DNA of 20,687 nucleotides, from NCBI GenBank assembly GCA_964396175.1, contig CAYNEK010000026.1, positions 37,361 through 58,047 on the forward strand, in the 5' to 3' direction. This DNA comes from an uncultured Polyangiaceae bacterium (GTDB lineage: Bacteria > Myxococcota_A > Polyangia > Polyangiales > Polyangiaceae). A model generated the notes under the pieces. That model searched no databases, was not told the origin of the DNA, and was given only the letters and a program-made list of their open reading frames with translations. Position numbers and translations under genes: made by a program. Below, in pieces: positions 309-19,895 of the stretch (the first letter of the stretch is position 1; every line of letters starts with the position of its first letter).

Positions 309-2546
309 GAAGACGCCGTCCGCGAGGATCTCGGCGATGTCGCGCTGTTGGATGTCTCCCTCCTTCTCCTGGCTCTTCAAGCCGTCGGAGAGCATGGTCA
401 TGCAGAAGGGGCAGCCGCTCGCGATCGTCTTCGCGCCGGTGTCGATGAGCTGGAGCGTCCGCTTCACGTTGACGCGATCCTTGTTCTGCTCCTCCATGTA
501 CATCTGGGCGCCGCCCGCGCCGCAGCAGAGCCCCTTGTTGCGGCTCCACCCCTCGACCTCGACGAGCTCGACGCCCGGCACTCGCCTCAAGACCTCGCGG
601 GGCGCCTCGTAGACGCCGTTGTGACGACCCAGGTAGCACGAGTCGTGGAAGACGATCTTCTCGCGCACGGCGTGCTTGGGCGTGAGCTTCCCGGCCGCGA
701 GCAGCTCGAGGAGATACTCCGAGTGGTGGACGACGTCGTACGAGCCACCGAAGTCGGCGTACTCGTTCTTCAGCGTGTTGTAGCCGTGGGGGCACGCCGT
801 CAGGATCTTGCGGAGGCCCTTCTCTTTGTAGCCGTTCAGGGTCGCGATGTTCTGCTCGGCGAGCGTCAGGAAGAGGTACTCGTTGCCCGCGCGGCGCGCT
901 GGGTCGCCGGTGCAGGTCTCCTCGCTCCCGAGCACGGCGAAGTCGACGCCCGCCTCCTTCAGGAGCTTCGCGACCGAGCGGGCGACCTTCTTCGCGCGGT
1001 CGTCGTAGCTCGCGGCGCAGCCGACCCAGTAGAGGATCTCTGCGTCGGGGTGGTCGGCGAGGGTCTTCAGGTCGAGCCCGTCGCTCCACGCGGTCCGGTC
1101 CATGCGCGAGAGGTTCCAGGGGTTGCCGTTCGTCTCCATGCCGTTGAAGGGCTTCTGGAGCTCGGCCGGGAATTCTCCCTTGATGGTGACGACGTTGCGC
1201 CGCATGGCGACGATCTTGTCGACGTAGCTGATCATCACGGGGCACTGCTCCTCGCACGCGCGGCAGGTCGTGCAGGCCCAGATGACGTCGGGGTGGATGA
1301 CGTTGCCGATGAGATCCGTCGGAGAGAGCGTGGGGCGCGCGGGGTACGCGGGGTCGTCGCCCTCCTCGGCGAGGCGGTCGCCCGACCAGTCCCCGCGTCC
1401 GAGCGCCGACTTCGTGCGGAGGGCCTCGTCGCTCTCCAGCATGAAGTTGCGCAGATCGATCGTAAACTGCTTGGGTGAGAGCATCTTGCCCGTCTTGTGC
1501 GCGGGGCAGTTGTCGCTGCAGCGACCGCACTCGGTGCAGGTGTAGAAGTCGAGGATCGCCTTCCACGTGAAGTGATCGGCGCGCGCGACGCCGACCGGGG
1601 CCTCGAGCGGATCGTCCTTCTCGCTCGCCGCGCCGACGATCTCCATCAGCTCATCGCTGGAGCTCGCCATCTTCGGGAGGTTCCCGTACGGCTCGAGGTT
1701 GCGGAAAAAGACGTTCGGGATGGCCGTGATGATGTGGAAGTGCTTCGAGTGAGGGAGCACGTTCAAGAAGACGAGCACGAGCGCGGCGTGCACCCAGAAG
1801 CCGAGGTGCGCGGCGAAGACGAGCGCGCCCGCGGGGAGCGCGGCGACGGCGAAGGCGACCAGGGAGCTTACCGGCGCGAACCAGTGGAAGTCGAGGTGCC
1901 CGACCGTGAGCGCCTCGGGGCCGAGGGGCGCGACGAGGGTCTGTGCGGCGCCGCACACGCCGACGAGCTCCCCGTAGCGCGCGTCGCAGCCGAGCGTCGG
2001 CCAGCGCGCGGCGAGCGCCATCATCGAGCCGTTGTAGAGGAGATCGCCGATCATCATCGCGAGGATGATCCCGAGGATGACGAGGCCCTCGGTCGAGAGG
2101 CTCATCCGGCGTTGGACGCGGATCTTGCGGAGGTAGATGAAGGTGCTCGCGCCGGCGATGACGAGGACGATGAACACGTCCTTCAGCAGCTCGTAGAGCC
2201 TGCCGACGAGCGTGTCGTGGCCGAGGAAGAAGAAGTTGAACGGCGCGTAGAACCCGCGGCCCCAGAGGATGAGCGTGTTGACGAGGAGGACGAGGAAGCC
2301 GAGGAAGATGAGGTGGTGCGCGAGGCCCGCGGTCCGGTAGTAGTGGAGCCGCTTCTGCCCGAGCGCGTACTCGATGACGCCCTCGATCCGCTCGGGGATG
2401 CGGTCCCACCGGACCTCGAAGCGCCCGACCGAGAGGAGCTCGAGCCGGCGCGCCATGCTCACGACGAACACGACGTGGAGCCCGATGATGAGGAGGCCCA
2501 TCGCGATGGGGTTCATGTCGCGGCGGGGTGTAGGTGCCCTTGGCAC
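276..2546 (-). CDS. Membrane-anchored Fe-S oxidoreductase. The N-terminal domain is polytopic and His-containing, like DsrM/HmeC/NarI di-heme cytochrome b. It is fused to an HdrD/GlpC/DsrK-like domain with two 4Fe-4S ferredoxin motifs and two CCG cysteine-rich domains. The track start at 2546 is a GTG; an in-frame ATG at 2516 (MNPIAMGLLIIGL...) is an equally plausible start.
   Basis: 756-aa ORF. Hydrophobic helices with conserved His (HVVFVV, HHLIFLGFLVLL, HLGFWVHAALVLVFL, HSKHFHI). CxxCxxCxxxCP twice (CTECGRCSDNCP; CTTCRACEEQCP). CCG domains (GSEETCTGDP...; LCCGAGGAQ...PFC). Confidence 0.85.
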   Translation of the reverse strand: MPRAPTPRRDMNPIAMGLLIIGLHVVFVVSMARRLELLSVGRFEVRWDRIPERIEGVIEYALGQKRLHYYRTAGLAHHLIFLGFLVLLVNTLILWGRGFYAPFNFFFLGHDTLVGRLYELLKDVFIVLVIAGASTFIYLRKIRVQRRMSLSTEGLVILGIILAMMIGDLLYNGSMMALAARWPTLGCDARYGELVGVCGAAQTLVAPLGPEALTVGHLDFHWFAPVSSLVAFAVAALPAGALVFAAHLGFWVHAALVLVFLNVLPHSKHFHIITAIPNVFFRNLEPYGNLPKMASSSDELMEIVGAASEKDDPLEAPVGVARADHFTWKAILDFYTCTECGRCSDNCPAHKTGKMLSPKQFTIDLRNFMLESDEALRTKSALGRGDWSGDRLAEEGDDPAYPARPTLSPTDLIGNVIHPDVIWACTTCRACEEQCPVMISYVDKIVAMRRNVVTIKGEFPAELQKPFNGMETNGNPWNLSRMDRTAWSDGLDLKTLADHPDAEILYWVGCAASYDDRAKKVARSVAKLLKEAGVDFAVLGSEETCTGDPARRAGNEYLFLTLAEQNIATLNGYKEKGLRKILTACPHGYNTLKNEYADFGGSYDVVHHSEYLLELLAAGKLTPKHAVREKIVFHDSCYLGRHNGVYEAPREVLRRVPGVELVEVEGWSRNKGLCCGAGGAQMYMEEQNKDRVNVKRTLQLIDTGAKTIASGCPFCMTMLSDGLKSQEKEGDIQQRDIAEILADGVFGPEAAVAAAE

Positions 2547-2746
2547 ACGGCGTCAACCCGCGGCGCGGGCCGAGGACGAGCCACGGAATCCCGCGAGGTT
2601 CGCGGCGACGCACCCCCCGTGGGGAAAGGGACGCGGAGCGTCACGCGCGCGCTCCGGGCGGCCAGCTCGTCGAGACGGCCGACCTCGCCCCCGCTCGCGT
2701 CCCTTGGTGCGACGGGGGCTCTCCTGTACCCTCGCCGGGACGCATC
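2547..2746. promoter_or_regulatory. Divergent intergenic region between the oxidoreductase (minus) and the Ser/Thr kinase (plus). Presumed bidirectional promoter region; no confident -35/-10 or -24/-12 elements identified.
   Basis: 200-bp non-coding gap between divergently oriented starts. Confidence 0.3.
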
Positions 2747-4696
2747 ATGACGATCTCCGATCCTCGGCTCCGGCAGCTCCGCGACGAGCTCGCGCGCTCG
2801 ACGGTGGACGGGACCAGCAGGGTCGTCTTCCACCTCCGGGAGCTGCTCGGCGAGGGAGGGCAGGGTTGGGTGTACCGCGCCAGCTACGACGACCCGGACG
2901 GTCCGCCGATGGTCGTGAAGCTGCTTCGCCCGGACGTCGTATCGAACGACGCGCTCGCCCGGTTCCTCCGCGAGGCGGAGGTGCTGAAGAAGCTGTCCAC
3001 CCTGGCCCCGTCCCCGAGCCTCATCCGCTTCTTCGATCACGGGATCCACCGGATCACGATGCCGGACCGAGAGGCATACTCGATGCCGTTCATCGCCCTC
3101 GAGTATGTGCAAGGCACGAACCTGCAGAAGATCCTGGCCGAGCAGCCCGGCAAGGGGCTCCCGGCGGGGCGCACAAGGAGGCTCTTGCGCCAGATCGTCC
3201 GCGCCGTCTCGATGGTGCACGGCGCGCAGATCGTCCACCGAGACATCAAGCCATCGAACATCCTCGTCACGACCGAGGCGGGCGTCGAGGTGGCGAAGCT
3301 CACCGATTTCGGGCTCGTCAAGCGCTACGATATCGATGTCCGCGGCACCTTGATGATGGCCGGCGCGAGCACCGGCTACGCGCCGCCGGAGCAGTTCGAG
3401 GCCGGGAACAAGCGCGTCTCGGCGCGCACGGACGTCTTCTCGCTCGCCGCGGTGACGTACGAGTGTCTGACGGCGAGCGCCGCGTTCCCCGTCGCCGCTG
3501 CCGAGAGCGGGCTCCTCGTGCTGTCTCGCATGCTCTCCGGGGAGCGCCCCACGCTCGCCGCGAGCGGCACCACGTTGGCGCCCGAGCTCGCGGGGCGCGC
3601 GGATCTGATCGCCGCCATCGACCGCGAGCTCACCCGCGCGCTCTCAGCCGATCCCGATCAGCGACACGCCACGGTCGAGGAGCTCTGGGCTGCCATCGAG
3701 GAGTCGCTCCGGCAGGCCGAGCGCCCGTTCGGGTCGACCGCGCGCCTCGCGGCGGGTCCCCGCTCGAAGGCCCCTGGATCAGCGCCGTCGGCGGCCGCCG
3801 TGGCCCCGGTGACCCGCGCGCCCGACGTGCGCGTCGTCAGCTCGAGCCTCTTGCCCGAGACGGCGCGCGCGATCGCCTTCGCGCCCGACGGCCACACTGC
3901 CTACGCGCTCGGTCGGACCGCGCTCTTCCGCTTCCGGGGCGGGGTCTGGGCCCACGTGGTGCTCCCCGCGGGCTTCGACACGGCGGCGCTCACGGGCCTG
4001 CTCGTCTCGCCCGCGGCGGAGGTCGTGCTCTTCGGGCAGCGCGGCGCGCTCTTCGGGCTCTCGCCAGACGGCTCGCTGCGCCCGTGGGCCGCGGCGGATC
4101 CCGATCTGTCCTGGGTCGGCGGCGTGGTCGAGCGGAGCGAGATCCTCCTCGTCGGGACGAGCGCGATCCGCCGGGTGCCCGTCGTGGGGATCCTCCGGCA
4201 GGGCGGATCGCTCTCGACGGCGACGGTCGAGGGCTCTTCGCGCCTCCTCGCCGCGACGCGGCTCGAGAGCGGAAACATCCTCGCGTGCGGAGAGGCGGGT
4301 GAGCTCGCGGTGCTCGGCGCCGGACCCGCGCGCGGCCTCCCGTGGGGCCGGACGGGGCACCTCTTCGCGCTCGCGAGGACCGACGACGGTGTGCACATCG
4401 TCGGCACTGGCGGCCACGCGCTCCTCGTCGCCCGCGATCTCGGCGTGCGGCTCGAGCCCGTCCAGACGACGCGCGACCTCTTCTGCGTGACGGCGGAGGG
4501 AGGCCAGGTGCTCGCCGGAGGCACCGAGGGTCGCCTCGTCCGACGCACCCCCTCGGGCTGGACCCGCGTCCCTTTGCCGAAGGAGGCGACGGGCACCGTC
4601 CGCGCCATCACGATCGGCGACACGCACTTCACCTGCGCGCACGACGATGGCCTCGTCGTCGCCGGGAGGCTGGACGCCCTCGCACAGCGGGCGTGA
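2747..4696 (+). CDS. Hanks-type (eukaryotic-like) Ser/Thr protein kinase with a roughly 330-aa C-terminal Gly/Ala/Val/Leu-rich, beta-rich repeat region, possibly a beta-propeller. Start chosen at ATG 2747 (MTISDPRLRQ...); the track ORF begins further upstream at 2534.
   Basis: Gly-loop GEGGQGWVY, VAIK-like MVVKLL, catalytic loop HRDIKPSNIL, DFG (TDFGLV), APE-like GYAPPEQ. The start sits about 25 aa before the G-loop. Confidence 0.85.
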   Translation: MTISDPRLRQLRDELARSTVDGTSRVVFHLRELLGEGGQGWVYRASYDDPDGPPMVVKLLRPDVVSNDALARFLREAEVLKKLSTLAPSPSLIRFFDHGIHRITMPDREAYSMPFIALEYVQGTNLQKILAEQPGKGLPAGRTRRLLRQIVRAVSMVHGAQIVHRDIKPSNILVTTEAGVEVAKLTDFGLVKRYDIDVRGTLMMAGASTGYAPPEQFEAGNKRVSARTDVFSLAAVTYECLTASAAFPVAAAESGLLVLSRMLSGERPTLAASGTTLAPELAGRADLIAAIDRELTRALSADPDQRHATVEELWAAIEESLRQAERPFGSTARLAAGPRSKAPGSAPSAAAVAPVTRAPDVRVVSSSLLPETARAIAFAPDGHTAYALGRTALFRFRGGVWAHVVLPAGFDTAALTGLLVSPAAEVVLFGQRGALFGLSPDGSLRPWAAADPDLSWVGGVVERSEILLVGTSAIRRVPVVGILRQGGSLSTATVEGSSRLLAATRLESGNILACGEAGELAVLGAGPARGLPWGRTGHLFALARTDDGVHIVGTGGHALLVARDLGVRLEPVQTTRDLFCVTAEGGQVLAGGTEGRLVRRTPSGWTRVPLPKEATGTVRAITIGDTHFTCAHDDGLVVAGRLDALAQRA

Positions 4697-4902: not shown

Positions 4903-5364
4903 ATGAGAGCCGTAATGATGGGCGACCGCCTTCTCGCGTCGACAGCGGCTCTGGCGGCGTGTGCGGCGCTCGTGTCGCCGGGCGCGTCCCCCGCGCGGGA
5001 GCTCGAGGCGCGTCTCCGCGCGGCCGCCGACGAAGACCCGATGGGGACGATGGCGACGGCGCTGCTCCTCGGCGGCGCGATCTTCTTCGCCGCCGAGCGC
5101 GGGGAGAACCCCAAGGTCACCTCCTTCGCCGACGCGCTCTATTTCGTCTCCACGAGCATGAGCGTCGGCTACTCGGACATCTTCCCGCGCACCGAGGCGG
5201 GCAAGCTCCTCTCGACGGTCCTCGCGGCGCTCGGGCCCGCGCTGACGGCCCGCGCGCTCGCCGACGCCAAGGCCCCCACGCGCGAGGACGACCGCGACGC
5301 CGCCCTGCTCGCCAAGCTCGACGAGATCCTGGTCGCGCTGAAGGACAGGCCCCAAGCGCCATGA
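4903..5364 (+). CDS. Small (153 aa) KcsA-like single-pore cation channel subunit (2 TM plus pore helix). The selectivity filter reads SVGYSD rather than TVGYGD. The stop TGA (5362-5364) overlaps the next gene's ATG as ATGA.
   Basis: GGAGG 7 nt upstream of ATG 4903. TM1 MATALLLGGAIFFAAE, pore FADALYFVSTSMSVGYSDIFP, TM2 GKLLSTVLAALGPALTA. Confidence 0.75.
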   Translation: MRAVMMGDRLLASTAALAACAALVSPGASPARELEARLRAAADEDPMGTMATALLLGGAIFFAAERGENPKVTSFADALYFVSTSMSVGYSDIFPRTEAGKLLSTVLAALGPALTARALADAKAPTREDDRDAALLAKLDEILVALKDRPQAP

Positions 5365-6152
5365 CGGAGCTCCTCCGCCTGGCGACCACCTTCCCGACGG
5401 TGGTCTTCACGGTGCTCGTCGGCGTCGTCCTCGTCTACTGGGCGTTCGTCATGCTGGGCGCGCTCGAGCTCGACGCGCTCGGCGGCGCCCACCACGCGCA
5501 CCTCGGCGACGTGGGGCACGACCTCGGTGACGTGGGCCACGGGCTCTTGCACGGGGGCCACGACGTCGGCTGCGCCGCACACGGCGCCCTGGACGCCGGA
5601 CACGACGTCGGAGACGCGAGCGACGGGGACACGCACGGCGACCACGGAGGCCAGGCGGCGCACGCCGCACACAGCGCCGGGCTGCTCGAGGCGCTGCGTC
5701 TGCGCTCCGCGCCGGTCACCGTCGTCGCGAGCCTCGTCGTCGTCTTCGCGTGGCTCGCGTCCGCGCTCCTCTCGTCGTGGTTCGGCTCGCCCCTCTGGCT
5801 CGCCCGCGCCGCGATCTTCGCGGGCTCCTTCGTCTTTGGCGTCCTCGCGACGTCGGTCGCGGTCCGCCCGCTCGCGCGGCTCTTCGTCACGCGCAAGGCG
5901 CGCGGCAACGCAGATCTCGTGGGGAAGGTGTGCGTCGTGCGCACCGGCGAGGTGACCGAGAGCTTCGGCGAAGGGGTCCTCGACGAGGGCGGCGCCTCGC
6001 TCGTCCTCCGCATCCGCCTCTCGGAGGGCGAGAGGCTCGCGCGCGGCGAGGAGGCGCTCATCCTCGAGTGGGACGCGCGCCGCGAGGCGTTCTTGGTCGC
6101 GCCCTTCGGGGACGTCCTCGCGCGCTCGGAGCGGCGCCCACCCAAGCGCTGA
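5361..6152 (+). CDS. YqiJ/NfeD-like inner-membrane protein: N-terminal TM helix, a His/Asp/Gly-rich repetitive loop ((L)GDVGH(D/G) repeats), further TM helices, and a C-terminal soluble beta (OB-fold-like) domain. It is the typical partner of flotillin/SPFH proteins.
   Basis: MTELLRLATTFPTVVFTVLVGVVLVYWAFVML (TM); HHAHLGDVGHDLGDVGHGLLHGGHDVG...GHDVGD; TMs VTVVASLVVVFAWLASALL / AAIFAGSFVFGVLATSVAV; C-terminal GKVCVVRTGEVTESFGEGVLDEGGASLVLRIRL. Architecture matches E. coli YqiJ-type NfeD short homologues; position immediately upstream of a flotillin gene. Confidence 0.75.
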   Translation: MTELLRLATTFPTVVFTVLVGVVLVYWAFVMLGALELDALGGAHHAHLGDVGHDLGDVGHGLLHGGHDVGCAAHGALDAGHDVGDASDGDTHGDHGGQAAHAAHSAGLLEALRLRSAPVTVVASLVVVFAWLASALLSSWFGSPLWLARAAIFAGSFVFGVLATSVAVRPLARLFVTRKARGNADLVGKVCVVRTGEVTESFGEGVLDEGGASLVLRIRLSEGERLARGEEALILEWDARREAFLVAPFGDVLARSERRPPKR

Positions 6153-6322
6153 GCTCCCCTCGGGCCCCGGCCGAGCCGTCGACCACCCAGGCCACTTCGC
6201 TTAGATCGTCGCTGTCGTCCCCTGCTCCGCGCGAGCGCGGCGGCGATCGTGACGGGGCTCCAAAGTTCGCTTATGCCTACATCGTCCGCTCGCCTCTTCC
6301 ATCCTCGGGATCCTCTGCTGCC

Positions 6323-8194
6323 ATGCCCAACATCCTCCCCATTCTCGTCGTCGTGGGCGTCCTCGCCTTCGTGCTGCTCGGCGTCATCACGCTCGTCAGC
6401 CGGTTTTATCGGCAGGTCGACCAGGGCAAGGCGCTCATCATCAACACGCTCCGCTCCGAGCCGGTCGTCACCTTCACGGGGGCGGTCGTCTACCCGGTCA
6501 TCAACCGCGCCGAGGTGATGGACATGTCCGTCAAGATCATCGAGATCGATCGACGCGGGAAGGAGGGGCTCATCTGCAAGGACAACATCCGCGCCGACAT
6601 CAACGTCAACTTCTTCGTGCGGGTGAACAAGACCGAGGAGGACGTCCTCAAGGTCGCGCAGTCCATCGGCTGCCAGCGCGCCTCCGACCCGGCGACGCTC
6701 TCGTCGCTCTTCGCCGCGAAGTTCTCCGAGGCGCTGAAGACCGTCGGCAAGCACTTCGACTTCCAAGAGCTCTACAAGATGCGCGAGGAGTTCAAGGACC
6801 AGATCATCAAGGTGATCGGCAAGGATCTCAACGGGTACATCCTGGACGACGCGGCCATCGACTACCTCGAGCAGACGCCGCTCGAGTCGCTCGATCGCAA
6901 CAACATCATGGACGCCGAAGGCATCCGAAAGATCACGGATCTCACCGTCGTACAGAACCTCCAGACCAACGAGCTCCGCCAGAAGGAGCGCATGGAGACC
7001 GGCAGCCAGAACCTGAACGCCGACGAGGCGATCTTCCGTTTCGAGCAGCGGCGCGCCGAGGCGGAGGCCAAGAAGAACAAGGAGATCGCCGTCGCTCAGG
7101 CCCGCGAGGAGAACGAGGGCGCGCGCATCGCGAGCGAGGAGCAGAAGAAGACCGCGCTCGTCTACGAGAAGAACCAGGAGGAGGCGCTCGTCGCCGCCGA
7201 GACGAAGACGCGCGGCGTCGCCATCGCCCAGAAGAACCGCGAGCGCGAGATCGGCGTCGAGGAGGAGCGCGTGCAGAAGGCCCGGCAGCTGGAGGCCATC
7301 CAGCGTGAGCGCGAGGTCGCCCTCGTCAGCATCGCCAAGGAGAAGGACGTCGAGGTCGAGAAGAAGGCCATCGCCGACGTCATCCGCGCCCGCATCGCCG
7401 TCGACAAGACCGTCGCGACCGAGGAGGAGAGCATCAAGGATCTCCGCACCGTCGCCCAGGCGACCCGCGAGAAGGACGTCATCCGCCTCGCCGCCGAGGC
7501 CCGCGCCGAGGAGATCCGCGTCCGCACCGTGAAGTCCGCCGAGGCCGAGGAAGAGGCCGCGAAGTTCGAGGCGCGGAAGAGGGTCTTGCTCGCGGACGCC
7601 GAGCTCGAGACCGCCGACAAGACCGCGCGGGCGAAGCAGCGGCTCGCCGAGGGCATCCAGGCCGAAGAGGCCGCCTCCGGGCTCGCGAAGGCCCGCGTCC
7701 GCGAGGCCGAGGCGGTCGCGATCGAGAAGACCGGGCAGGCAGAGGCCTCCGCCCTCCGCGAGCGCATGGTCGCCGAGGCCGAGGGCCTCACCCAGAAGGC
7801 CAACGCGATGCACGCGCTCGACGCGGCCGGCCGCGGCCACGAGGAGTTCCGCCTCCAGATCGAGAAGGAGAAGGCGGTCGATCTCCGCGCGCTCGACGTG
7901 AAGAAGGAGCTCGCGGTCGCTCAGGCCGAGGTGCTCGGCAAGACCCTCGGCAACGCGAAGATCCAGATCATGGGTGGGGACGGGCAGTTCCTCGAGCGCT
8001 TCGTGAAGGCCGTGTCGGTCGGCCAGTCGATCGACGCCTTCGTCGACGAGAGCAAGACCGTGCAGGGGATGCTCGCCGAGGTCGTGAAGGAGGGCTCCCC
8101 CGCCGCGAAGAAGGTCGCCGAGGTCCTGCGCACCGTCGCCGAGGCCGATCCGAAGCTCCGCGCGAAGCTCGGTGAGACCCCCGCCGATCGATGA
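6323..8194 (+). CDS. Flotillin family (SPFH/Band-7, YqiK/FloT-like) protein, 623 aa: N-terminal TM anchor, SPFH domain, long Ala/Glu/Lys/Arg-rich coiled-coil flotillin region. Start chosen at ATG 6323 (MPNILPILVVVGVLAFVLL...). Its stop overlaps the next gene's start as ATGA (8191-8194).
   Basis: TM MPNILPILVVVGVLAFVLLGVITLV. SPFH core KALIINTLRSEPVVTFTGAVVYPVINRAEVMDMSVKIIEIDRRGKEGLICKDNIRADINVNFFVRVNK. EA-rich heptad region from about aa 240 to 520. C-terminal KIQIMGGDGQFLERF. Confidence 0.88.
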   Translation: MPNILPILVVVGVLAFVLLGVITLVSRFYRQVDQGKALIINTLRSEPVVTFTGAVVYPVINRAEVMDMSVKIIEIDRRGKEGLICKDNIRADINVNFFVRVNKTEEDVLKVAQSIGCQRASDPATLSSLFAAKFSEALKTVGKHFDFQELYKMREEFKDQIIKVIGKDLNGYILDDAAIDYLEQTPLESLDRNNIMDAEGIRKITDLTVVQNLQTNELRQKERMETGSQNLNADEAIFRFEQRRAEAEAKKNKEIAVAQAREENEGARIASEEQKKTALVYEKNQEEALVAAETKTRGVAIAQKNREREIGVEEERVQKARQLEAIQREREVALVSIAKEKDVEVEKKAIADVIRARIAVDKTVATEEESIKDLRTVAQATREKDVIRLAAEARAEEIRVRTVKSAEAEEEAAKFEARKRVLLADAELETADKTARAKQRLAEGIQAEEAASGLAKARVREAEAVAIEKTGQAEASALRERMVAEAEGLTQKANAMHALDAAGRGHEEFRLQIEKEKAVDLRALDVKKELAVAQAEVLGKTLGNAKIQIMGGDGQFLERFVKAVSVGQSIDAFVDESKTVQGMLAEVVKEGSPAAKKVAEVLRTVAEADPKLRAKLGETPADR

Positions 8195-11100
8195 CCGACG
8201 AGGCGAAGCCCGCCGAGCCCGCCCAGAAGGCCGCGTCGGACAGCGGGGGAGGCTCGGTCCTGCGCCGTCGGCGAGAGGCCGCCGCGCGCGAGGTGCTCGA
8301 GAAGGCCCGGGCGCTCGACGAGAAGCGGAAGGGCCTCTTCGGCGGCCAGGAGCAGAAGTTGCTCGGCGTCACGCGGACGCGCACGGAGCAAAACGCCGTG
8401 CCGCGAGACATGGCGCGGGTCGGCGAGACGATCCTCGTCGGGTACGAGGTCTTCCTCGGTCTGTCACGCGAGATCGACGTCGCCCAGGTCTTCGGGCTGA
8501 GCCAGCTCCTCCAGGCGGACGGCGGCTTCGAGCTGTCCCCGGTGCCCATCGCGTCGCACGCGCCTTACCTCGCCGACGAGGCCTTCGTCCGCGACTTCAC
8601 GAGCACCTTCCGCTACGCGACGGGCGCGCGGGTCACGGAGCTTCGCCGCACGGACGAGCGGCTCCTCGTCGTCGTGCGGTCCGGTCGAGACGACGCGGAT
8701 CGCAAGGTCTTCCGCTGGGTCATCGACGGCAAGGGCAACGTCAAGTACCTGGACGCGCGCGGAGAGGAGGATCTCACTCCGCCAGCGGCGCACCCCTTCG
8801 CGTGGAAGCAGACGACGCGCGACGATCAGGTCGGCGGGAAGTTCCCGCACATCGCGATCGACGACACGCTCTTCGTCGAGACGATCGGCGGCGACCTCAC
8901 CGTCAAGATCGAGAACAACACCACGACCGGGCTCGGCGTCTACTCGGAGCCCGTCGACGACCCGAACCAGACGCTCGATGACGCGGACATCGCGTGGGCC
9001 AAGGTGGGCGGGCTCTACGTCGTCAAGCTGCGGCCCTTCCGCGAGACGGTCACGCGCTACCTCGTCTTCGATCCCATCACGAGGTCCATCCGCCGCGTCG
9101 ACGCGCTCGGCGTCGCGTGCCTGCCGCTCCCGGAGGACCAGGGGCTCATCTTCCCGGGCGGGCTCGCCCTGCGCGGGGTCGGGGCCAAGGTGCTCGACGG
9201 CGTCCCGTCGGATCTCATCCCCATCGCGCGCGTCGCGTCGCCCAACGGCGAGGACGTGCTCTTCGCCTTCTTCCGCGAGAAGGACGGGCTCTACCTCCTC
9301 CTCCCGTACAACGCGCTCCGCAAAGAGCTCGCGCCAGCGATCGTCTGTCACGGCTACACGCTCCTCGACGACGGGACGCTCCTCTCCTTCCGCGCAGGGG
9401 ACGAGCCGGCGCGCGTCCACCCCGTGCAGGTCTGGCAGACGCCCTTCGGCTCGGCGGACGCCGAGGCCGATCGACCGCTCACCGGGAGCTTCCTCGAGAA
9501 GATCGGCAACCGCGATCTCGTGCGCGGCCTCGCCGACGCGCTCTCGGTCGGCAAGGCGGGGCTCGTGTGCGACACGCGCGAGCGGCTCCTCGAGCTGGTC
9601 CGCGCCGTCGGGCGCGCCGCCGACTCCCACCACTGGCTCGGCCACGCCGAGGCCGGGGATCTGCTCTCGTCGCTCGTCGCGCTCCGGAGCGCCGCCGAGG
9701 CCGCGATGGACGAGATCGAGCGCGATCTCGCCCTCGCGCGTGAGGCCGAGGCAGAGACCGCGAAGATTGAGGCGGCGATCGAGGCCGGCCTCCACGACCA
9801 CGCACCCGAAGCGCTCCGCGATCTCGACGCGGTCACCAAGGCGCTCGTCTTCGTGCGCTCCCAGCGCGGCAAGCTCGTCGCGCTCGGCGAGCGGCGCGGC
9901 GCGTCCAAGGAGCGCCTCGTCGCGGCGCTCGAGCGGCTGAAGGAGCACGAGGCCGGCGTCAGCAAGACGGCGGCGAGCTTCCTCGCCGAGGGCGAGGCGT
10001 TCGCCCCGCTCTTGAAGGGTTTCGACGCGCTCGAGCGCGAGGCCCAGGGGGTGACGACCGTGCTCGGGCTCGCGCCGCTCCGCGAGGCGCTCGATCGCGG
10101 CGCCGAGGGGCTCGTCGCGTTGCAAGAGCTGTCGGCGGGGCTCGCCGAGGACGACGCGCCGCTGCGGACCAAGATCGCCCAGGGGCTCGGCCACGCGCTC
10201 GCCGCGAAGAACCGCGCCGACGCCGTGCTCACGGGGCGGCGCCGCGAGCTAGCGATGGCGGAGGGGCGCGCCGAGCTCGCCGCCGAGCTCTCGCTCTTTG
10301 GACAAAACGCCGCGGCCGAGGTCGCCCAAGCCGACAGCCCCGAGGCCTGCGACGCCGCGATCGCCCGGCTCGGCACGACGCTCGCGACGATCGAGGCTCG
10401 CTTCGCCGAGCTCGTCGATCTGCTCCCCGGCGTCGAGGAGAAGCGCGAGGAGGCCGTCCGCGCCCTCTCCGACAAGAAGAAGCGGCTCGTCGAGGAGCGC
10501 GCGCGTCGCGCCGAGGCGCTCTTCGAGGCGGCGTCGCGCCTGTCGAAGGTGGTGCTCGAGAAGGCGAAGTCGCTCCCCGAGGCCGACGCCCTGCACGGCT
10601 TCTTCGCCGCCGATCCGATGGTCGAGAAGCTCCGCGGCCAGATCCGCGCGCTCGCCGCGCTGGGTGATGGCGTGCGGTCGGCGGAGCTCGAGACGCGGCT
10701 CGCGGAGGCGAAGGAGGAGGCGTTCCGCGCGCTCCGTGATCGGGCGGATCTCTTCGAGGACGGGCAGCGGCTCATCCGGCTCGGGGCGGCGCGCTTCCTC
10801 GTGCACGAGGGCAAGCCCGAGCTGGTGCTCGTCCCGCGCGGCGATGGGGTCTCGGCGCACGTGCTCGGCACCGATCTCTACGTCCCGGTGCGTGACGAGG
10901 CGCTCGTCCGCGAGCGCGCGCTCTTCGCGTGGGAGGTGCCGTCCGAGACGCCCACGATGGCGCGCGCGGCGTTCCTTGCGGGCTCGCTCCTGCTCGCGCG
11001 AGGAATCCTCACGCCCGTCGACGACTCCGCCATCGACGATCTCGTCCGCGAGGCGGCGATGGCGCGGCTCGACCAAGGCTACGATCGCGGCGTCCACGAC

Positions 11101-13587
11101 GTCGACGCGGCCGCGATCTTCCGCGCGCTCGTCGGCGTCGCGAAGCTCGGCGGGCGGCTCCTCCACCGGCCCGACGTCCGCGCCTTCGCGTGCATGTTCT
11201 TCGCGGGCCTCGCGCCCGAGGCGCGCGAGCCGTGGGTGGTGCGCAGCCGGAGCGCAGGACGGCTCACGCGCACCTACGGCGCCTACGACGCCGAAGAGCA
11301 GCTCGCGAGGGAGCTCTCGGGCGCGCTCCGTGAGGCCGCGGCGTCGCTCGGGTTCGATCCTTCGCTCGCCGAGGAGGCCGCCACGTACCTCGTGGTCGAG
11401 CTCGGTCTCGACGAGCTTCGCTTCGTCCTCTCTGGAGAGGCCTCGGCGCTCTCGCAGGCGCTCCTCGCCGATCTCGACACGCGCGGGGCGCGACGCGCCT
11501 TCGAGGCGGATCTCCGCGCGCTCGACGCGCGCCCGAAGGATCGCCTCGAGGTGGCCGAGAGCCACGTGCGCGCCTTCCTCGCGGCGCGAGAGGACTCCGA
11601 GCACACGCGCTGGGCGAAGGAGGCGGCCGTGTCGCTCGCGACGCCGCGCCTGTCTCGCGCCGTCTCGTCCGCGCGGACCGCCTTCGCCGTCGAGGGGTTG
11701 CTCTCGCTCCACCCGACCATCGAGGGGCGCGCGCTGCGCGGCTACGCGGACGAGCTGCTCGCCGAGGTGCGGCGCCACGAGCGCGACGATCTCCCGAGGT
11801 TCCGCGCCTTCGCCGCGAAGAAGGGCGAGGTGCTGGCGAGCGAGGAGAAGCGGCTCGGGACCAAGGCGTTCGCGCCGCGGGTGCTCTCGACCTTCGTCCG
11901 CAACCAGCTCGTCGACGAGGTCTACCTCCCGCTCATCGGGAAGAACCTCGCGAAGCAGATCGGCGCCGTGGGCGACGGGGCGCGCACCGATCGCATGGGC
12001 CTGCTCATGCTGCTCTCGCCGCCCGGGTACGGCAAGACGACGCTCCTCGAGTACGTCGCCGACCGGCTCGGTCTCGTCTTCGTCAAGGCGAACGGCCCGT
12101 CCCTCTCGTCGAAGACGACCTCGCTCGATCCCGCCGCGGCGCCCGATCGCACCGCGCGCGAGGAGGTGCAGAAGATCGCGCTCGCCCTCGAGATGGGGAA
12201 CAACGTGATGCTCTGCCTCGACGACATCCAGCACACGAGCCCCGAGCTGCTCCAGCGCTTCGTGTCGCTCTGCGACGGGCAGCGGCGCATCGAGGGCGTC
12301 TTCGACGGCGAGCCGCGGACCTGGGACTTGCGCGGCAAGCGCTTCTGCGTGGTGATGGCCGGCAACCCCTACACCGAGTCGGGCGAGCGCTTCCGCGTGC
12401 CCGACATGCTGGCCAACCGCGCCGACACCTACAACCTCGGCGACGTGCTCGAGGGGCGCCGCGAGGTCTTCGAGCGCTCGTACATCGAGAACGCGCTCGC
12501 CTCGCACCCGCTCCTCGCGCCGCTCACCGGCCGCACGCGCGGCGATCTCGACAGGCTGCTCCGGCGCGCGGCGGGCGAGGAGATCGCGGTGTCGGCCTTC
12601 GATCATGCCTTCGGCGAGGCCGAGGTGGCCGAGCTCGAGGCGCTCCTCCGGCACATGATCCGCGTCGAGAAGACGCTCCTCATGGTGAACGAGGCGTACG
12701 TGCGCTCGGCGTCGCAGGCGGACGCGTACCGGACGAGCCCGCCCTTCAAGCTCCAGGGCAGCTACCGCAACATGGCGAAGATCGCGGACAAGCTCTCGCC
12801 CGCCATGACGGCCGAGGAGGTCGAGCGGGTGATCGACGATCACTACGCGAGCGAGTCCCAGACGCTCACGCAGAGCGCGGAGGAGAACCTGCTCGCCCTC
12901 CGCGAGCTGCGCGGGCGCCTCGACGAGAAGGGCAAGGCGCGGCTCGAGGCGATCCGGGCGGCCTTCGTGCGGCGTGTGCGTCAGGGCGGCGCCGAGGCCG
13001 ATCCGGCGACGCGCGTGACCGGCGGGCTCGAGGGGATCGAGACGGAGCTCGCGAGCCTCGGCAAGACACTGACGACGCTCGCGCAGCCCAAGGAGGCTCC
13101 TCCCGCGGCGCCCGCCACCGACGGCGCGCTGAACCTCGCGATGAGGGAGCTCGCCGTCTTGGAGCAGCTCGTCCAGAACATGCCCCCGCCCGCGACCGCC
13201 GCCGCCAGCGACCCGCGAATCGACGAGATCTCCGCGGCGATCCGGCGGGTCGAGGCGTCGTTCTTCACACTGCCGCGCGGCGAGACGACGGACATCGAGC
13301 TCGGCCCCGCGACGGAGTCGAACTTTTACGACGGCATGGGCGGGGTCTTCGTGGACGGCGGGGTCTTCGTCGCGACGTACGCGAAGGCGCCCGCGGTGGG
13401 GGCGCGGGTGTCCTTGCGGCTGGCCTTCCCGGACGGCGTCGTCGAGGCGAGCGGGATCGTCGCGTTCGTGCGCGAGATGCTCGCGGGGGGTGGGATCCCT
13501 GGGTACGGGGTGCGGCTCGCCGAGACGCCGGAGCTTCGAGCGCGGGTCGAGCACTTCACGAGGCTCCGAGCGCCCGACGTCGTGTGA
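8191..13587 (+). CDS. Giant (1798 aa) multidomain protein, translationally coupled to the flotillin gene. It has an N-terminal roughly 450-aa globular region of unknown function and extended Ala/Glu/Leu/Arg-rich coiled coils (about aa 480-1000). A MoxR-class AAA+ ATPase module sits at about aa 1260-1420 (Walker A SPPGYGKTT, Walker B VMLCLDD, sensor region FCVVMAGNPYTESGERFRVPDMLANRA). A PilZ-like domain (TIGR02266-type) forms the C-terminus.
   Basis: Uninterrupted ORF with strong GC3 bias. P-loop at nt about 12019-12045; Walker B at about 12214-12235. The NPxxExG...LPDxLxxRx signature resembles MoxR/AAA_3-AAA_5. The C-terminus has FYDGMGGVFVDGGVFV...GARVSLRLAFPDGVVEASGIVAFV...GYGVRL, like PilZ beta-barrel strands ending in a G-hydrophobic-G motif. 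Confidence 0.8.
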   Translation: MTDEAKPAEPAQKAASDSGGGSVLRRRREAAAREVLEKARALDEKRKGLFGGQEQKLLGVTRTRTEQNAVPRDMARVGETILVGYEVFLGLSREIDVAQVFGLSQLLQADGGFELSPVPIASHAPYLADEAFVRDFTSTFRYATGARVTELRRTDERLLVVVRSGRDDADRKVFRWVIDGKGNVKYLDARGEEDLTPPAAHPFAWKQTTRDDQVGGKFPHIAIDDTLFVETIGGDLTVKIENNTTTGLGVYSEPVDDPNQTLDDADIAWAKVGGLYVVKLRPFRETVTRYLVFDPITRSIRRVDALGVACLPLPEDQGLIFPGGLALRGVGAKVLDGVPSDLIPIARVASPNGEDVLFAFFREKDGLYLLLPYNALRKELAPAIVCHGYTLLDDGTLLSFRAGDEPARVHPVQVWQTPFGSADAEADRPLTGSFLEKIGNRDLVRGLADALSVGKAGLVCDTRERLLELVRAVGRAADSHHWLGHAEAGDLLSSLVALRSAAEAAMDEIERDLALAREAEAETAKIEAAIEAGLHDHAPEALRDLDAVTKALVFVRSQRGKLVALGERRGASKERLVAALERLKEHEAGVSKTAASFLAEGEAFAPLLKGFDALEREAQGVTTVLGLAPLREALDRGAEGLVALQELSAGLAEDDAPLRTKIAQGLGHALAAKNRADAVLTGRRRELAMAEGRAELAAELSLFGQNAAAEVAQADSPEACDAAIARLGTTLATIEARFAELVDLLPGVEEKREEAVRALSDKKKRLVEERARRAEALFEAASRLSKVVLEKAKSLPEADALHGFFAADPMVEKLRGQIRALAALGDGVRSAELETRLAEAKEEAFRALRDRADLFEDGQRLIRLGAARFLVHEGKPELVLVPRGDGVSAHVLGTDLYVPVRDEALVRERALFAWEVPSETPTMARAAFLAGSLLLARGILTPVDDSAIDDLVREAAMARLDQGYDRGVHDVDAAAIFRALVGVAKLGGRLLHRPDVRAFACMFFAGLAPEAREPWVVRSRSAGRLTRTYGAYDAEEQLARELSGALREAAASLGFDPSLAEEAATYLVVELGLDELRFVLSGEASALSQALLADLDTRGARRAFEADLRALDARPKDRLEVAESHVRAFLAAREDSEHTRWAKEAAVSLATPRLSRAVSSARTAFAVEGLLSLHPTIEGRALRGYADELLAEVRRHERDDLPRFRAFAAKKGEVLASEEKRLGTKAFAPRVLSTFVRNQLVDEVYLPLIGKNLAKQIGAVGDGARTDRMGLLMLLSPPGYGKTTLLEYVADRLGLVFVKANGPSLSSKTTSLDPAAAPDRTAREEVQKIALALEMGNNVMLCLDDIQHTSPELLQRFVSLCDGQRRIEGVFDGEPRTWDLRGKRFCVVMAGNPYTESGERFRVPDMLANRADTYNLGDVLEGRREVFERSYIENALASHPLLAPLTGRTRGDLDRLLRRAAGEEIAVSAFDHAFGEAEVAELEALLRHMIRVEKTLLMVNEAYVRSASQADAYRTSPPFKLQGSYRNMAKIADKLSPAMTAEEVERVIDDHYASESQTLTQSAEENLLALRELRGRLDEKGKARLEAIRAAFVRRVRQGGAEADPATRVTGGLEGIETELASLGKTLTTLAQPKEAPPAAPATDGALNLAMRELAVLEQLVQNMPPPATAAASDPRIDEISAAIRRVEASFFTLPRGETTDIELGPATESNFYDGMGGVFVDGGVFVATYAKAPAVGARVSLRLAFPDGVVEASGIVAFVREMLAGGGIPGYGVRLAETPELRARVEHFTRLRAPDVV

Positions 13588-13860: not shown

Positions 13861-15978
13861 CTACGGTGTCTGCGCCGTCACGTCCGCCGTCACCACCCCC
13901 TCCGGTCGTGGCGTCGCCTCACCCTCCTCACACGCCGGCAACACCACGCGGAAGCTCGAGCCGCGATCGAGCTGGGTCGTCACCTCGATCGCCCCCCCAG
14001 CCGCCTCCACGATCCGCTGCGAGATCGCGAGACCGAGCCCCGTGCCGCGGGGCTTCGTCGTGAAAAAGGGCATAAAGAGGCTCTTCTCGACGGACGGCGC
14101 CATCCCGGGCCCCTCGTCCGTCACCGCGATCTCGACCGACGCCCGTCCCGCCTGCTCCCCGAAGGCGCGCGACAGGACCCGCCCGCGCGACGAGATGGTC
14201 ACCATCCCGCGACCTCCCATCGCCTGCTGCGCGTTCTGCACGAGGTTCAAGATCACCTGGCGGAGCTTCTCGGGATCGATGCGCACCATGGGCAAGTCAT
14301 CGGCAAGATCGGCCGTGACCTCGATGCCCGCGAGGTCGGGCGTGAGGATCTGCAGCGTGCGACGAAGGACGCCGTTCGCGTCGATGGGTGGGGACGGGCC
14401 GGCGGGCGGACGCGCGTAGTCGAGGACGTTCGTGACGACGGTGTTCAGCCGATCGACCTCTTCGAGGATGACGCCGAGCAGATCCTTCGTCCCGAGGTCG
14501 AGGGGCTTGCCCTCCTCGGGATCGGCGAGCAGCTCCGCCGCGCCCTTGATCGCGCCGAGCGGGTTCTTGATCTCGTGCGCGAGGCCCGCGGAGAGCTGCC
14601 CGAGCGCCGCCAGACGATCCTTGATCTTGAGGCGGACGAACGCGCGCGAGTTTTCGAGCGCCACCGTGAGCTGCGCGGCGAGCGCGTCGAGCAAGCCGAC
14701 GTCCTCCGGCGAGAACGCGTCGCGGACGCGCACGTCGGCGATGACCCACAGCCCGACCGGCTCGCGCGGATCTCCGAGCGTGAAGATCACGCCCTCGGCG
14801 AGCGGTCCGAGCGTGCCGGCCGCCGCGAGGATCCCTGCGACCGCCGCCTCCCCACGCTCGTCACGCTCGCGCAGCACCTCGTCGAGGACGACGGGCCCTC
14901 GAGCCCGCGCCCGCTCGAACAGCGGCGCGAGGGCCGCGATCTCGACGAGCCGGGGCGGCTCGCACCCCGCCGCGAGGCTGAGATCGAAGGTGACGCCGTC
15001 GGGCGCGCGGAGGTAGAGCGCGGCCCCGGTGATCCGCCGCGACGCGGTGAGGCCCACCGTGACGATCGTCGCGATCTGGTCCACCTCGACCGCGCGCGCG
15101 AGCCGCCCGCGCACGTCGTGGGCCGTCTGCTCGAGATCGAAGCGCTCGCGGAAGAAGGTCCGATGGATCTGCTCCTCGACCCTCTGCCGCATCGGCTCGA
15201 AGAGGACGAGCACGACGACCGCCGCGAGGATGGCGTTCAGGTACATCGTCGAGAAGCGCCCGATGACCGTGACGCAGAGGTAGAAGATCCCCGCGAGCAA
15301 GAAGGCGAGCAGCGTCGCGACGACGATGCGCCCGAAGAGCTCGTAGAGGCCGAGGAGCCGCTCCTCGATGAGCGCCTGCGCGATCGCGAACAGGAAGATC
15401 ACCGACAGGGCCGATCCCACCGGCGGCAGCTCCGCGCCGATGAACCACAAGAACTCGGCGAGGCTCGTCCCGAGCGCGAGCGCGCCCGTCGTCACCAGGT
15501 ACTGGACGCGGCGCTTGATGGCCCGCGACGTCGAGCGCTGCCCTCGACGTGCAAGCGCGTAGAGCCCCGCCGCGAAGAACCCGCCGACATACGCGTACAC
15601 GATCCCACGCGCCCAGCCCTGCCCGTGCCAGTCCGAGAGCACGAGCAGCGTGACCGGGATCGCGATGAACATCGCCGCACGTCGCAGCCGGGGTGGCACG
15701 CTGCGGGGCGTCGGGAGGATCGCCTCGAAGAGCTCGAGCGACAGGATCGGCAAGAAGACCGACAGGATCGCCGTGAAGCGCGCCCAGATGCTCGCCTGGA
15801 AGAAGCCATAGAGCGCCTGCGCCGAGTACCAGAGCGCGAGATCTGCAGCGAAGAGCGAGAAGACGACGTGCGACCGGCGCGACCGCGCACGGAGCAGCAC
15901 CGCCCCCGCGATGGCGAGCGCGAGCGCGGCGCAGAGGACGAGGGTTCTCTTGCGGACGTCGGAGCCGAAGTCGACCAC
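13861..15978 (-). CDS. Sensor histidine kinase, 705 aa: N-terminal polytopic membrane domain (about 8 TM), GAF-like domain, HisKA dimerisation/phosphoacceptor domain, and HATPase_c. The start is probably GTG at 15978.
   Basis: H-box LAHEIKNPLGAIKGAAELL; N-box LNLVQNAQQA; G1 DEGPGM; G2 GTGLGLAIS. Hydrophobic N-terminus (LVLCAALALAIAGAVLL, FIAIPVTLLVL, IVVATLLAFLLAGIFYL etc.). Confidence 0.88.
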   Translation of the reverse strand: MVDFGSDVRKRTLVLCAALALAIAGAVLLRARSRRSHVVFSLFAADLALWYSAQALYGFFQASIWARFTAILSVFLPILSLELFEAILPTPRSVPPRLRRAAMFIAIPVTLLVLSDWHGQGWARGIVYAYVGGFFAAGLYALARRGQRSTSRAIKRRVQYLVTTGALALGTSLAEFLWFIGAELPPVGSALSVIFLFAIAQALIEERLLGLYELFGRIVVATLLAFLLAGIFYLCVTVIGRFSTMYLNAILAAVVVLVLFEPMRQRVEEQIHRTFFRERFDLEQTAHDVRGRLARAVEVDQIATIVTVGLTASRRITGAALYLRAPDGVTFDLSLAAGCEPPRLVEIAALAPLFERARARGPVVLDEVLRERDERGEAAVAGILAAAGTLGPLAEGVIFTLGDPREPVGLWVIADVRVRDAFSPEDVGLLDALAAQLTVALENSRAFVRLKIKDRLAALGQLSAGLAHEIKNPLGAIKGAAELLADPEEGKPLDLGTKDLLGVILEEVDRLNTVVTNVLDYARPPAGPSPPIDANGVLRRTLQILTPDLAGIEVTADLADDLPMVRIDPEKLRQVILNLVQNAQQAMGGRGMVTISSRGRVLSRAFGEQAGRASVEIAVTDEGPGMAPSVEKSLFMPFFTTKPRGTGLGLAISQRIVEAAGGAIEVTTQLDRGSSFRVVLPACEEGEATPRPEGVVTADVTAQTP

Positions 15979-16358: not shown

Positions 16359-16359
<1 letters not shown>
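15997..16359 (-). CDS. Small (120 aa) Pro/Ala/Asp-rich lipoprotein with a lipobox signal peptide (MRLAGPLLVLLALLVGGC) and an internal duplicated KPEPDPW motif. Its ATG overlaps the stop of the upstream EBP gene (TGATG), and it ends 19 nt before the histidine kinase start.
   Basis: Lipobox L-V-G-G-C after a hydrophobic h-region and an N-terminal Arg. GGAGG about 10 nt upstream of the ATG, inside the EBP 3' end. The track ORF 15997..16971 is in this frame, but only the last 120 codons are non-overlapping and credible. Confidence 0.6.

Positions 16360-19872
<3,513 letters not shown>

Positions 19873-19895
<23 letters not shown>

Follow-up and report, generated by a model that had tools for sequence, protein, structure and literature searches.

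A PilZ-like domain without canonical c-di-GMP motifs at the C-terminus of a DUF3686 AAA+ ATPase from an uncultured Polyangiaceae bacterium

In canonical PilZ domains that bind the bacterial signal c-di-GMP (cyclic dimeric GMP), an RxxxR motif occupies the loop before strand 1 and a [D/N]xSxxG motif the turn between strands 2 and 3, and the N-terminal loop wraps the ligand. Here we analyse a PilZ-like domain at the C-terminus of a 1798-residue ATPase, encoded on the plus strand at 8191..13587 of a 20,687-nucleotide stretch of DNA from an uncultured Polyangiaceae bacterium (contig CAYNEK010000026.1; the whole stretch is called the window, and positions refer to it). Our preferred reading, to which we give a probability of about 0.6, is that a non-canonical PilZ-fold domain is tethered to a DUF3686 AAA+ ATPase as a protein-docking module and does not itself sense c-di-GMP.

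Several PilZ proteins are known to lack the motifs. PA2960, XCC1028, XAC1133, and PXO_02715 have neither and do not bind c-di-GMP (10.1101/2020.02.11.943704; 10.1101/814665), and the same holds for XCC6012, another motif-less PilZ protein (10.1101/2020.02.11.943704). The C-terminal "motif V" of XAC1133 attaches to the N-domain of PilB, a hexameric ATPase, and XAC1133 bridges PilB to FimX, which it contacts through F49 and L51 (PMC8389850). In Myxococcus xanthus, Kuzmich et al. describe four PilZ proteins fused to DnaK/DnaJ domains and one fused to a kinase; RxxxR point mutants of PixA and PixB served to test the role of c-di-GMP binding, and the PilZ domain of Pkn1 is predicted not to bind c-di-GMP (PMC8316039).

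The window domain resembles XAC1133 and XC1028 of Xanthomonas and PA2960 of Pseudomonas aeruginosa, the eponymous "divergent" PilZ proteins (3CNR, 3DSG, 7LKM, and 4FOU), in the loss of both motifs and in an equal length of the loop before the GG pair. Work with a hexameric ATPase is a further likeness to XAC1133 and PA2960, and the TIGR02266 profile scores XAC1133/XC1028 at 44.7 bits and the window domain at 41.9 bits. However, XAC1133 is a stand-alone protein of ~117 residues of the type IV pilus system, whereas the window domain forms part of a DUF3686-AAA protein, and no pil genes (and no GGDEF, EAL, or HD-GYP genes) were found in the window. Motif V of XAC1133, a tail ending at Met117, is absent from the window domain, whose tail reads RAPDVV. 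In addition, strand 2 of XAC1133 is converted to a helix (Galperin and Chou, 10.1101/814665), whereas the model of the window domain has six strands. The window domain falls outside the PA2960/XAC1133 orthologous group and is not an orthologue.

The window protein is also reminiscent of the M. xanthus fusions (DnaK-/DnaJ-PilZ and Pkn1), in which PilZ-type domains are attached to ATP-driven chaperone-like proteins and kinases. It differs from them in its host protein, and the DUF3686 orthologues of Myxococcus and Corallococcus lack the PilZ-like domain.

Homology and predicted fold of the C-terminal domain

An earlier note on this DNA had placed a PilZ/TIGR02266-type domain at the C-terminus of the ATPase. 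The peptide that it quoted is the translation of 13240-13584 (+), followed by TGA, and forms the C-terminus of the open reading frame 8191-13587. The AlphaFold2 model and homology delimit the PilZ-fold domain to residues 1699-1798 (13285..13584, +), with six β-strands and a C-terminal helix.

TIGR02266, the profile of a paralogous PilZ-type domain of M. xanthus, is the sole curated profile with a significant match to the window domain (E 1.1e-10; 41.6-41.9 bits; positions 11-93 of the 96 in the hidden Markov model, HMM). The score stays below the curated NCBIfam cutoff of 68.7, and the profile comparison thus places the domain as homologous to TIGR02266 yet outside the curated family. The match to Pfam PF07238 is not significant on its own (12.4 bits, E 0.21; gathering threshold 22.5), and the last 141 residues of the ATPase have no significant Pfam match. 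Of the two profiles named in the earlier note, one therefore detects the domain, below its cutoff, and the other does not.

Homologues strengthen the signal. In an alignment of 63 non-redundant homologous C-terminal domains (A1), 63/63 copies match TIGR02266 (best E 1.5e-15) and 57/63 reach E ≤ 1 against Pfam PilZ (best 1.6e-8); three homologues tested against Pfam PilZ reach 30-33 bits. The A1 profile retrieves the Xanthomonas PilZ structures 3DSG, 4F48, 7LKQ, and 3CNR from the PDB at E 1e-6 to 1e-5, and no convincing match to other solved proteins. A single-sequence phmmer search of the PDB with the window domain gives no match, nor does a word-indexed homologue search with the C-terminal 121 residues alone. 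BLASTP aligns the window domain with XC1028 over 74 residues at 31% identity.

The AlphaFold2 model of a 128-residue segment, computed with A1, has a mean predicted local distance difference test score (pLDDT) of 89.5 and a predicted template modelling score of 0.74. In order, it contains a less confident helix (residues 5-22), the six strands, and the C-terminal helix. XAC1133 and XC1028 account for all of the top 11 Foldseek matches (E 6e-4, target-normalised TM-score 0.67), and YcgR, MrkH, PP4397, and Alg44 rank after them. The predicted fold is that of PilZ and places the window domain in the PilZ superfamily. With a significant profile match present and a PilZ fold predicted, the earlier assignment stands, and the PilZ-like character of the domain is well beyond chance.

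Loss of both c-di-GMP motifs

Searched with A1, a set of 1.84 billion representative proteins gives 6237 matches at E ≤ 1e-3. Among the best 150 are the tandem-domain proteins P0249, P0292, and P0263, which are true TIGR02266 members (138-195 bits over the full HMM, summed over two or three tandem domains). The true members examined have RxxxR (RRVHER, RQHER, RTYPR, and RAFPR) and [DN]xSxGG (NDISEGG, ADISQGG, and GDVSEGG). The window domain has the SNFY, GGxFVAT, and GxGxRF signatures in common with TIGR02266 but, unlike the true members, has neither motif.

The motif positions were mapped in a MAFFT alignment of the window domain with true TIGR02266 domains. The equivalent of RxxxR is T-L-P-R-G (13267..13281, +), where T1693 and G1697 take the places of the two Arg, and no R...R pattern is found upstream of strand 1 when the sequence of the domain is read. 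The equivalent of [D/N]xSxGG is V-F-V-D-G-G (residues 1719-1724; 13345..13362, +), in which V1719 replaces the Asp, V1721 replaces the Ser, and the GG pair is retained. A calibration on Pfam PilZ agrees independently with this mapping. In that profile, PA4608 residues 7-103 correspond to positions 1-101, so that D35, S37, and G40 fall near positions 29, 31, and 34; residues 53-118 of the window segment correspond to positions 33-98, and G54 (residue 1724 of the ATPase) is the motif glycine. The Pfam PilZ matches of the window protein and of three homologues start at profile positions 30-33, past both motifs, and hhalign of the family profile with PA4608 alone aligns strands 5-6 only. In the model, a helix and the short TLPRG turn replace the canonical N-terminal loop, and the loop between strands 2 and 3 has the canonical length, equal to that of XC1028. 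From the aligned residues, both c-di-GMP motifs of the window domain are lost.

The earlier note was thus right that both motifs are degenerate, but the peptides that it took for them are not at equivalent positions. IRRVEAS, offered as the RxxxR site, belongs to a helix upstream of the barrel (PRIDEISAAIRRVEASFF; 13213-13266, +; residues 5-22 of the modelled segment), and YDGMGGVF, offered as the second motif, precedes the true position by five residues. Compared with canonical PilZ domains (PA4608/MapZ, YcgR, Alg44, PlzD, MrkH, MotI, and BcsA), the window domain lacks the RxxxR loop and the Asp and Ser of the second motif, and its Pfam score is below the gathering threshold.

Two interpretations were dropped in the course of the mapping. 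TIGR02266 is not a non-binding branch of the eponymous PilZ type, since its true members have both motifs; XC1028 matches this profile and PA4608 does not. The Arg that precedes strand 1 in most family members is no remnant of the second Arg of RxxxR, since it lies two columns downstream in the alignment.

A homologous C-terminal domain is present in 115/120 of the closest homologues of the ATPase (phmmer E 1e-9 to 1e-22). The window copy belongs to the subfamily defined by A1, whose criteria are a C-terminal position after the AAA module, the GGxFVAT, P..G, V, and GFG residues, and a conserved R-E-P tail. It retains all the fold-defining residues (GG, F, V, T, P, G, V, and G-Y-G); the two glycines of the GG pair are kept in 114 and 115 of the 115 homologues. 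Most DUF3686-type copies carry a variant signature, with an Arg just before strand 1 (102/115), SNFY(R), and a D-V-V-x-H-G-G with a two-residue insertion, its Asp present in 109/115. The family tail is R-E/D-P-L/M-L/V-R (R in 108/115, P in 110/115), from which the window copy retains R-A-P.

Other members of the family present distinct signatures. Nineteen of the 115 copies (P0097, P0076, P0110, P0078, P0114, and others) have R-G-M-x-R-P-E-R-V-D-V together with D-V-C-S-L-G-G, and their RxxxR is three residues upstream of the family Arg; judged by these residues, this sub-clade is the part of the DUF3686 family most likely to keep, or to have regained, some affinity for c-di-GMP. A large family of 250-450-residue proteins (among P0257-P0390 of the representative search) also ends in a PilZ-like domain, preceded by an N-terminal helical region (MSDPV..AK.ARE.L..AL.ALQ....VP..L..AEPIA) and a Pro/Gln-rich linker. 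The signature SNFY...DV[IV]EHGG is common to this family and the DUF3686 family, and its strict conservation in two architectures hints at a shared binding function. A new ligand-binding mode of SNFY...DV[VI]xHGG in the sister proteins, lost by the window copy, is a rather remote possibility. The stand-alone protein P0386 (127 residues) has a canonical N-terminal half (RxxxR and NISEGG) and a C-terminal half closely of the DUF3686 type, and may be either an assembly chimera or a recombinant between two kinds of PilZ domain.

These signatures bear on the question whether divergent contacts let the window domain still bind c-di-GMP, which would put the ATPase under direct second-messenger control. 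The fold is that of PilZ, domains with canonical motifs are among the close sequence relatives, SNFY(R)...DV[VI]xHGG in the rest of the DUF3686 family and in the 250-450-residue family might be a ligand site, and 19 family members have RGMxRPER and DVCSLGG. However, the canonical residues are missing from the window protein, and so is the alternative signature of its family, of which the Asp, the His, and the Arg are gone; the loop that wraps c-di-GMP is replaced by the helix and the TLPRG turn; and none of the PilZ proteins so far reported to lack the motifs (PA2960, XCC1028, XAC1133, PXO_02715, and XCC6012) binds it (10.1101/2020.02.11.943704). Such retained binding is very unlikely. From the lost residues, we infer that c-di-GMP binding is absent from the window domain. 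Of the alternatives put forward in the earlier note, divergent binding or a non-binding adaptor, the evidence favours the adaptor: there is no Arg at either RxxxR position, Val replaces Asp and Ser, the non-binding XAC1133/XC1028 are the nearest solved structures, and the Pfam PilZ matches checked leave out the stretch of the profile with the two motifs.

Distribution of the domain and its conserved host module

The host protein has the architecture DUF3686 - DUF7902 - AAA - linker - PilZ-like. Coding-like codon bias at 8191-13587 is seen in one frame alone (G+C content at third codon positions, GC3, 0.94), and the TGA stop is at 13585-13587. Pfam matches cover residues 36-481 (DUF3686, E 8e-152), 602-686 (DUF7902), and 1273-1395 (AAA). 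The AAA+ core (11980..12375, +; Pfam AAA/AAA_5/AAA_22) contains Walker A GYGKT and Walker B LDDIQH, and the solved structures nearest to it are VAT/Cdc48/p97/Rix7 (E ~1e-6). The protein belongs to the DUF3686 family and is a giant AAA+ ATPase of the classical clade. A linker of ~100 residues (12982..13284, +) connects the AAA module to the PilZ-like domain and, read from the sequence, consists of short helices, the helix with IRRVEAS among them, with Pro/Ala-rich stretches (QPKEAPPAAPATDG and NMPPPATAAASDP) between them. Its pLDDT is 68-74, against >95 in the barrel, and the linker is flexible.

With the full-length ATPase as query, 1505 homologues are found at E ≤ 1e-10 among the scored candidates, including a record identical to the window ATPase (P0001). 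The automatic name of the DUF3686-AAA ATPase is "DNA repair ATPase". A full-text search found no paper on DUF3686 or PF12458, and a search under the name TIGR02266 found none either.

The distribution was scanned in one genome per species with the AAA core as query, and relatives number at least 590. Across Myxococcota, many Actinomycetota, a genome of Bacteroidota (Zhouia), and one metagenome-assembled genome (MAG) each of Acidobacteriota and Clostridia, the core shows 72-79% identity. The PilZ-like domain is present in 9/30 complete Myxococcota genes and missing from 21/30; the carriers include Sorangium, Polyangiaceae, Polyangiales, a Nannocystis MAG, a MAG labelled Myxococcaceae, and a "68-20" MAG. 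It is present in 0/34 actinomycete genes, whose ends lie ~293 residues past Walker B, and in 0/3 other genes. Since the PilZ-like domain is absent from most Myxococcota genes and from all actinomycete genes, it is a lineage-specific accessory. The orthologues of Myxococcus, Corallococcus, Archangium, and Cystobacter (L003-L008, L014, L016, and L062) have a helical low-complexity tail of ~180 residues instead. Different lineages put different C-terminal appendages on the same DUF3686-AAA core. Repeats of DL.PYL..L...L occur in the ~180-residue tail, whose terminal helix is conserved.

The ATPase gene is the last of a three-gene module (5361-13587, +) that is syntenic across phyla (loci L002-L082), namely in Myxococcota, many Actinomycetota, the Bacteroidota genome (Zhouia), and a Clostridia MAG. 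The first gene (5361..6152, +) encodes a membrane protein of 263 residues, 41% identical to the Sorangium gene in the equivalent position. It is present in most loci, and the window protein has no Pfam match even at E 10; the label "NfeD-like" comes from position and architecture alone and is unconfirmed. The second gene (6323..8194, +) encodes a membrane-anchored SPFH/flotillin (YqiK-type) protein of 623 residues. This assignment comes from its homologues, which bear the names YqiK or SPFH domain-containing protein and in some cases have PF01145; the window protein itself has no match in the Pfam, NCBIfam, and PDB profile searches. The gene keeps its synteny, at 44-65% identity, in nearly all loci with enough upstream DNA; in the window, its stop codon overlaps the ATG of the ATPase gene (ATGA). 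The third gene encodes the ATPase, of 1600-1900 residues.

The three-gene core is kept also where the PilZ-like domain is absent. Therefore, the domain is at most a lineage-specific add-on, and the view of the earlier note that it decides whether the whole system is under second-messenger control fails, since most orthologous systems do without it. The PilZ-like domain would modulate the machine, which does not depend on it.

The pairing of genes for a membrane-anchored SPFH protein and a classical-clade AAA+ ATPase recalls HflK/C-FtsH and prohibitin-m-AAA. Unlike in HflK/C-FtsH, no protease domain was detected, and the ATPase is 1600-1900 residues long, soluble-looking, and has DUF3686 at its N-terminus. 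The parallel with HflK/C-FtsH is one that we infer for the surrounding system.

The SPFH neighbour is also relevant to another alternative, in which the barrel, instead of a protein, binds a small ligand other than c-di-GMP, such as a different nucleotide or the head group of a lipid close to the flotillin membrane domain. PilZ-like barrels are versatile, and the product of the adjoining gene is a probable co-worker. However, the window sequence shows no conserved pocket residues of polar or basic character, the PilZ literature cited here describes no small-molecule ligand of the fold other than c-di-GMP, and the proposal is pure speculation. We consider it highly improbable.

Upstream of the module, an Ion_trans_2 (K+ channel-like) gene of 153 residues (4903-5364, +) ends 4 nt inside the start of the 263-residue gene. 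The contig of the nearest relative also has an Ion_trans_2 gene upstream of the module (L083, 365-805), and the operon may include this gene as a fourth, lineage-specific member. The window also encodes a separate Ser/Thr kinase (2534-4696, +), two to three genes upstream, which lacks a conserved counterpart in the Sorangium locus. In P0003 (2511 residues), a Ser/Thr kinase is fused behind the PilZ-like domain of a DUF3686-AAA protein, which may hint at a functional link between kinase and PilZ-like domain. Immediately downstream, on the opposite strand, are a membrane histidine kinase (13861-15978, -) and a TPR-containing sigma-54 activator of 1178 residues (16359-19895, -). The other neighbours in the window include a CCG/Fe-S protein and a glycosyltransferase. 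No second PilZ-like domain was found in the window, and PADLOC finds no defence system in it.

A putative docking role and its meaning

Several observations weigh against a docking role. The window copy lacks the family Arg (T instead), Asp, His, and two-residue insertion, and has Phe for the family Trp. Loss of residues conserved in the family could mean relaxed constraint. No relatives of the domain with more than 47% identity were found; the contig of the nearest relative stops short of the C-terminus. In addition, the positions of F49 and L51 of XAC1133 are S and R in the window domain. The partners must therefore differ from those of XAC1133, and the analogy is one of mode of action.

The same divergence raises the question whether the domain is a decaying remnant, acquired ancestrally, with its fold kept and its function gone in this lineage. 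The domain is dispensable for the system, as most orthologues lack it; the window copy is an outlier of its family, alone with a T at the Arg position, without the Asp, and with a diverged tail; and its identity to any relative is ~40%. However, the fold-determining residues are intact and the model is very confident. The reading frame has no frameshift or premature stop, with codon usage as in the rest of the gene. Moreover, an identity of ~40% is close to the 44-50% of the whole protein, so that the domain is not evolving faster. On balance, decay is unlikely.

The preferred reading remains a protein-docking module. The window domain stems from the TIGR02266 branch of PilZ domains, which is expanded in Myxococcota. 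Docking is proposed by analogy with XAC1133, which clamps the PilB hexamer by its barrel surface and its C-terminal tail. In the DUF3686 protein, contacts would be made through the barrel surface and the conserved R-x-P tail, either with a different component of the same machine or with a partner specific to the lineage. Both this docking role and the choice of partner are speculative and are proposed by comparison with known systems.

By the same analogy, the PilZ-like domain might be a handle by which a lineage-specific regulator switches or relocates a flotillin-associated, Cdc48-like AAA+ machine. The regulator could be a c-di-GMP-loaded degenerate EAL/GGDEF protein, as in PilZ-FimX-PilB, or a Ser/Thr kinase, as in P0003. 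We regard this extension as rather improbable. If true, it would imply indirect control, by second messenger or phosphorylation, of a widely conserved membrane-quality-control module.

As far as sequence and structure prediction settle the matter, the ATPase should be kept off the list of direct c-di-GMP effectors. Several homologues are automatically annotated as "Tfp pilus assembly protein PilZ", and the present result guards against such over-annotation. It also indicates that PilZ modules of the non-binding kind find reuse as add-ons on ATP-driven machines other than those of type IV pili. The host module of SPFH and DUF3686-AAA proteins, conserved from Myxococcota to Actinomycetota and Bacteroidota, is a more intriguing object than the PilZ-like domain itself.

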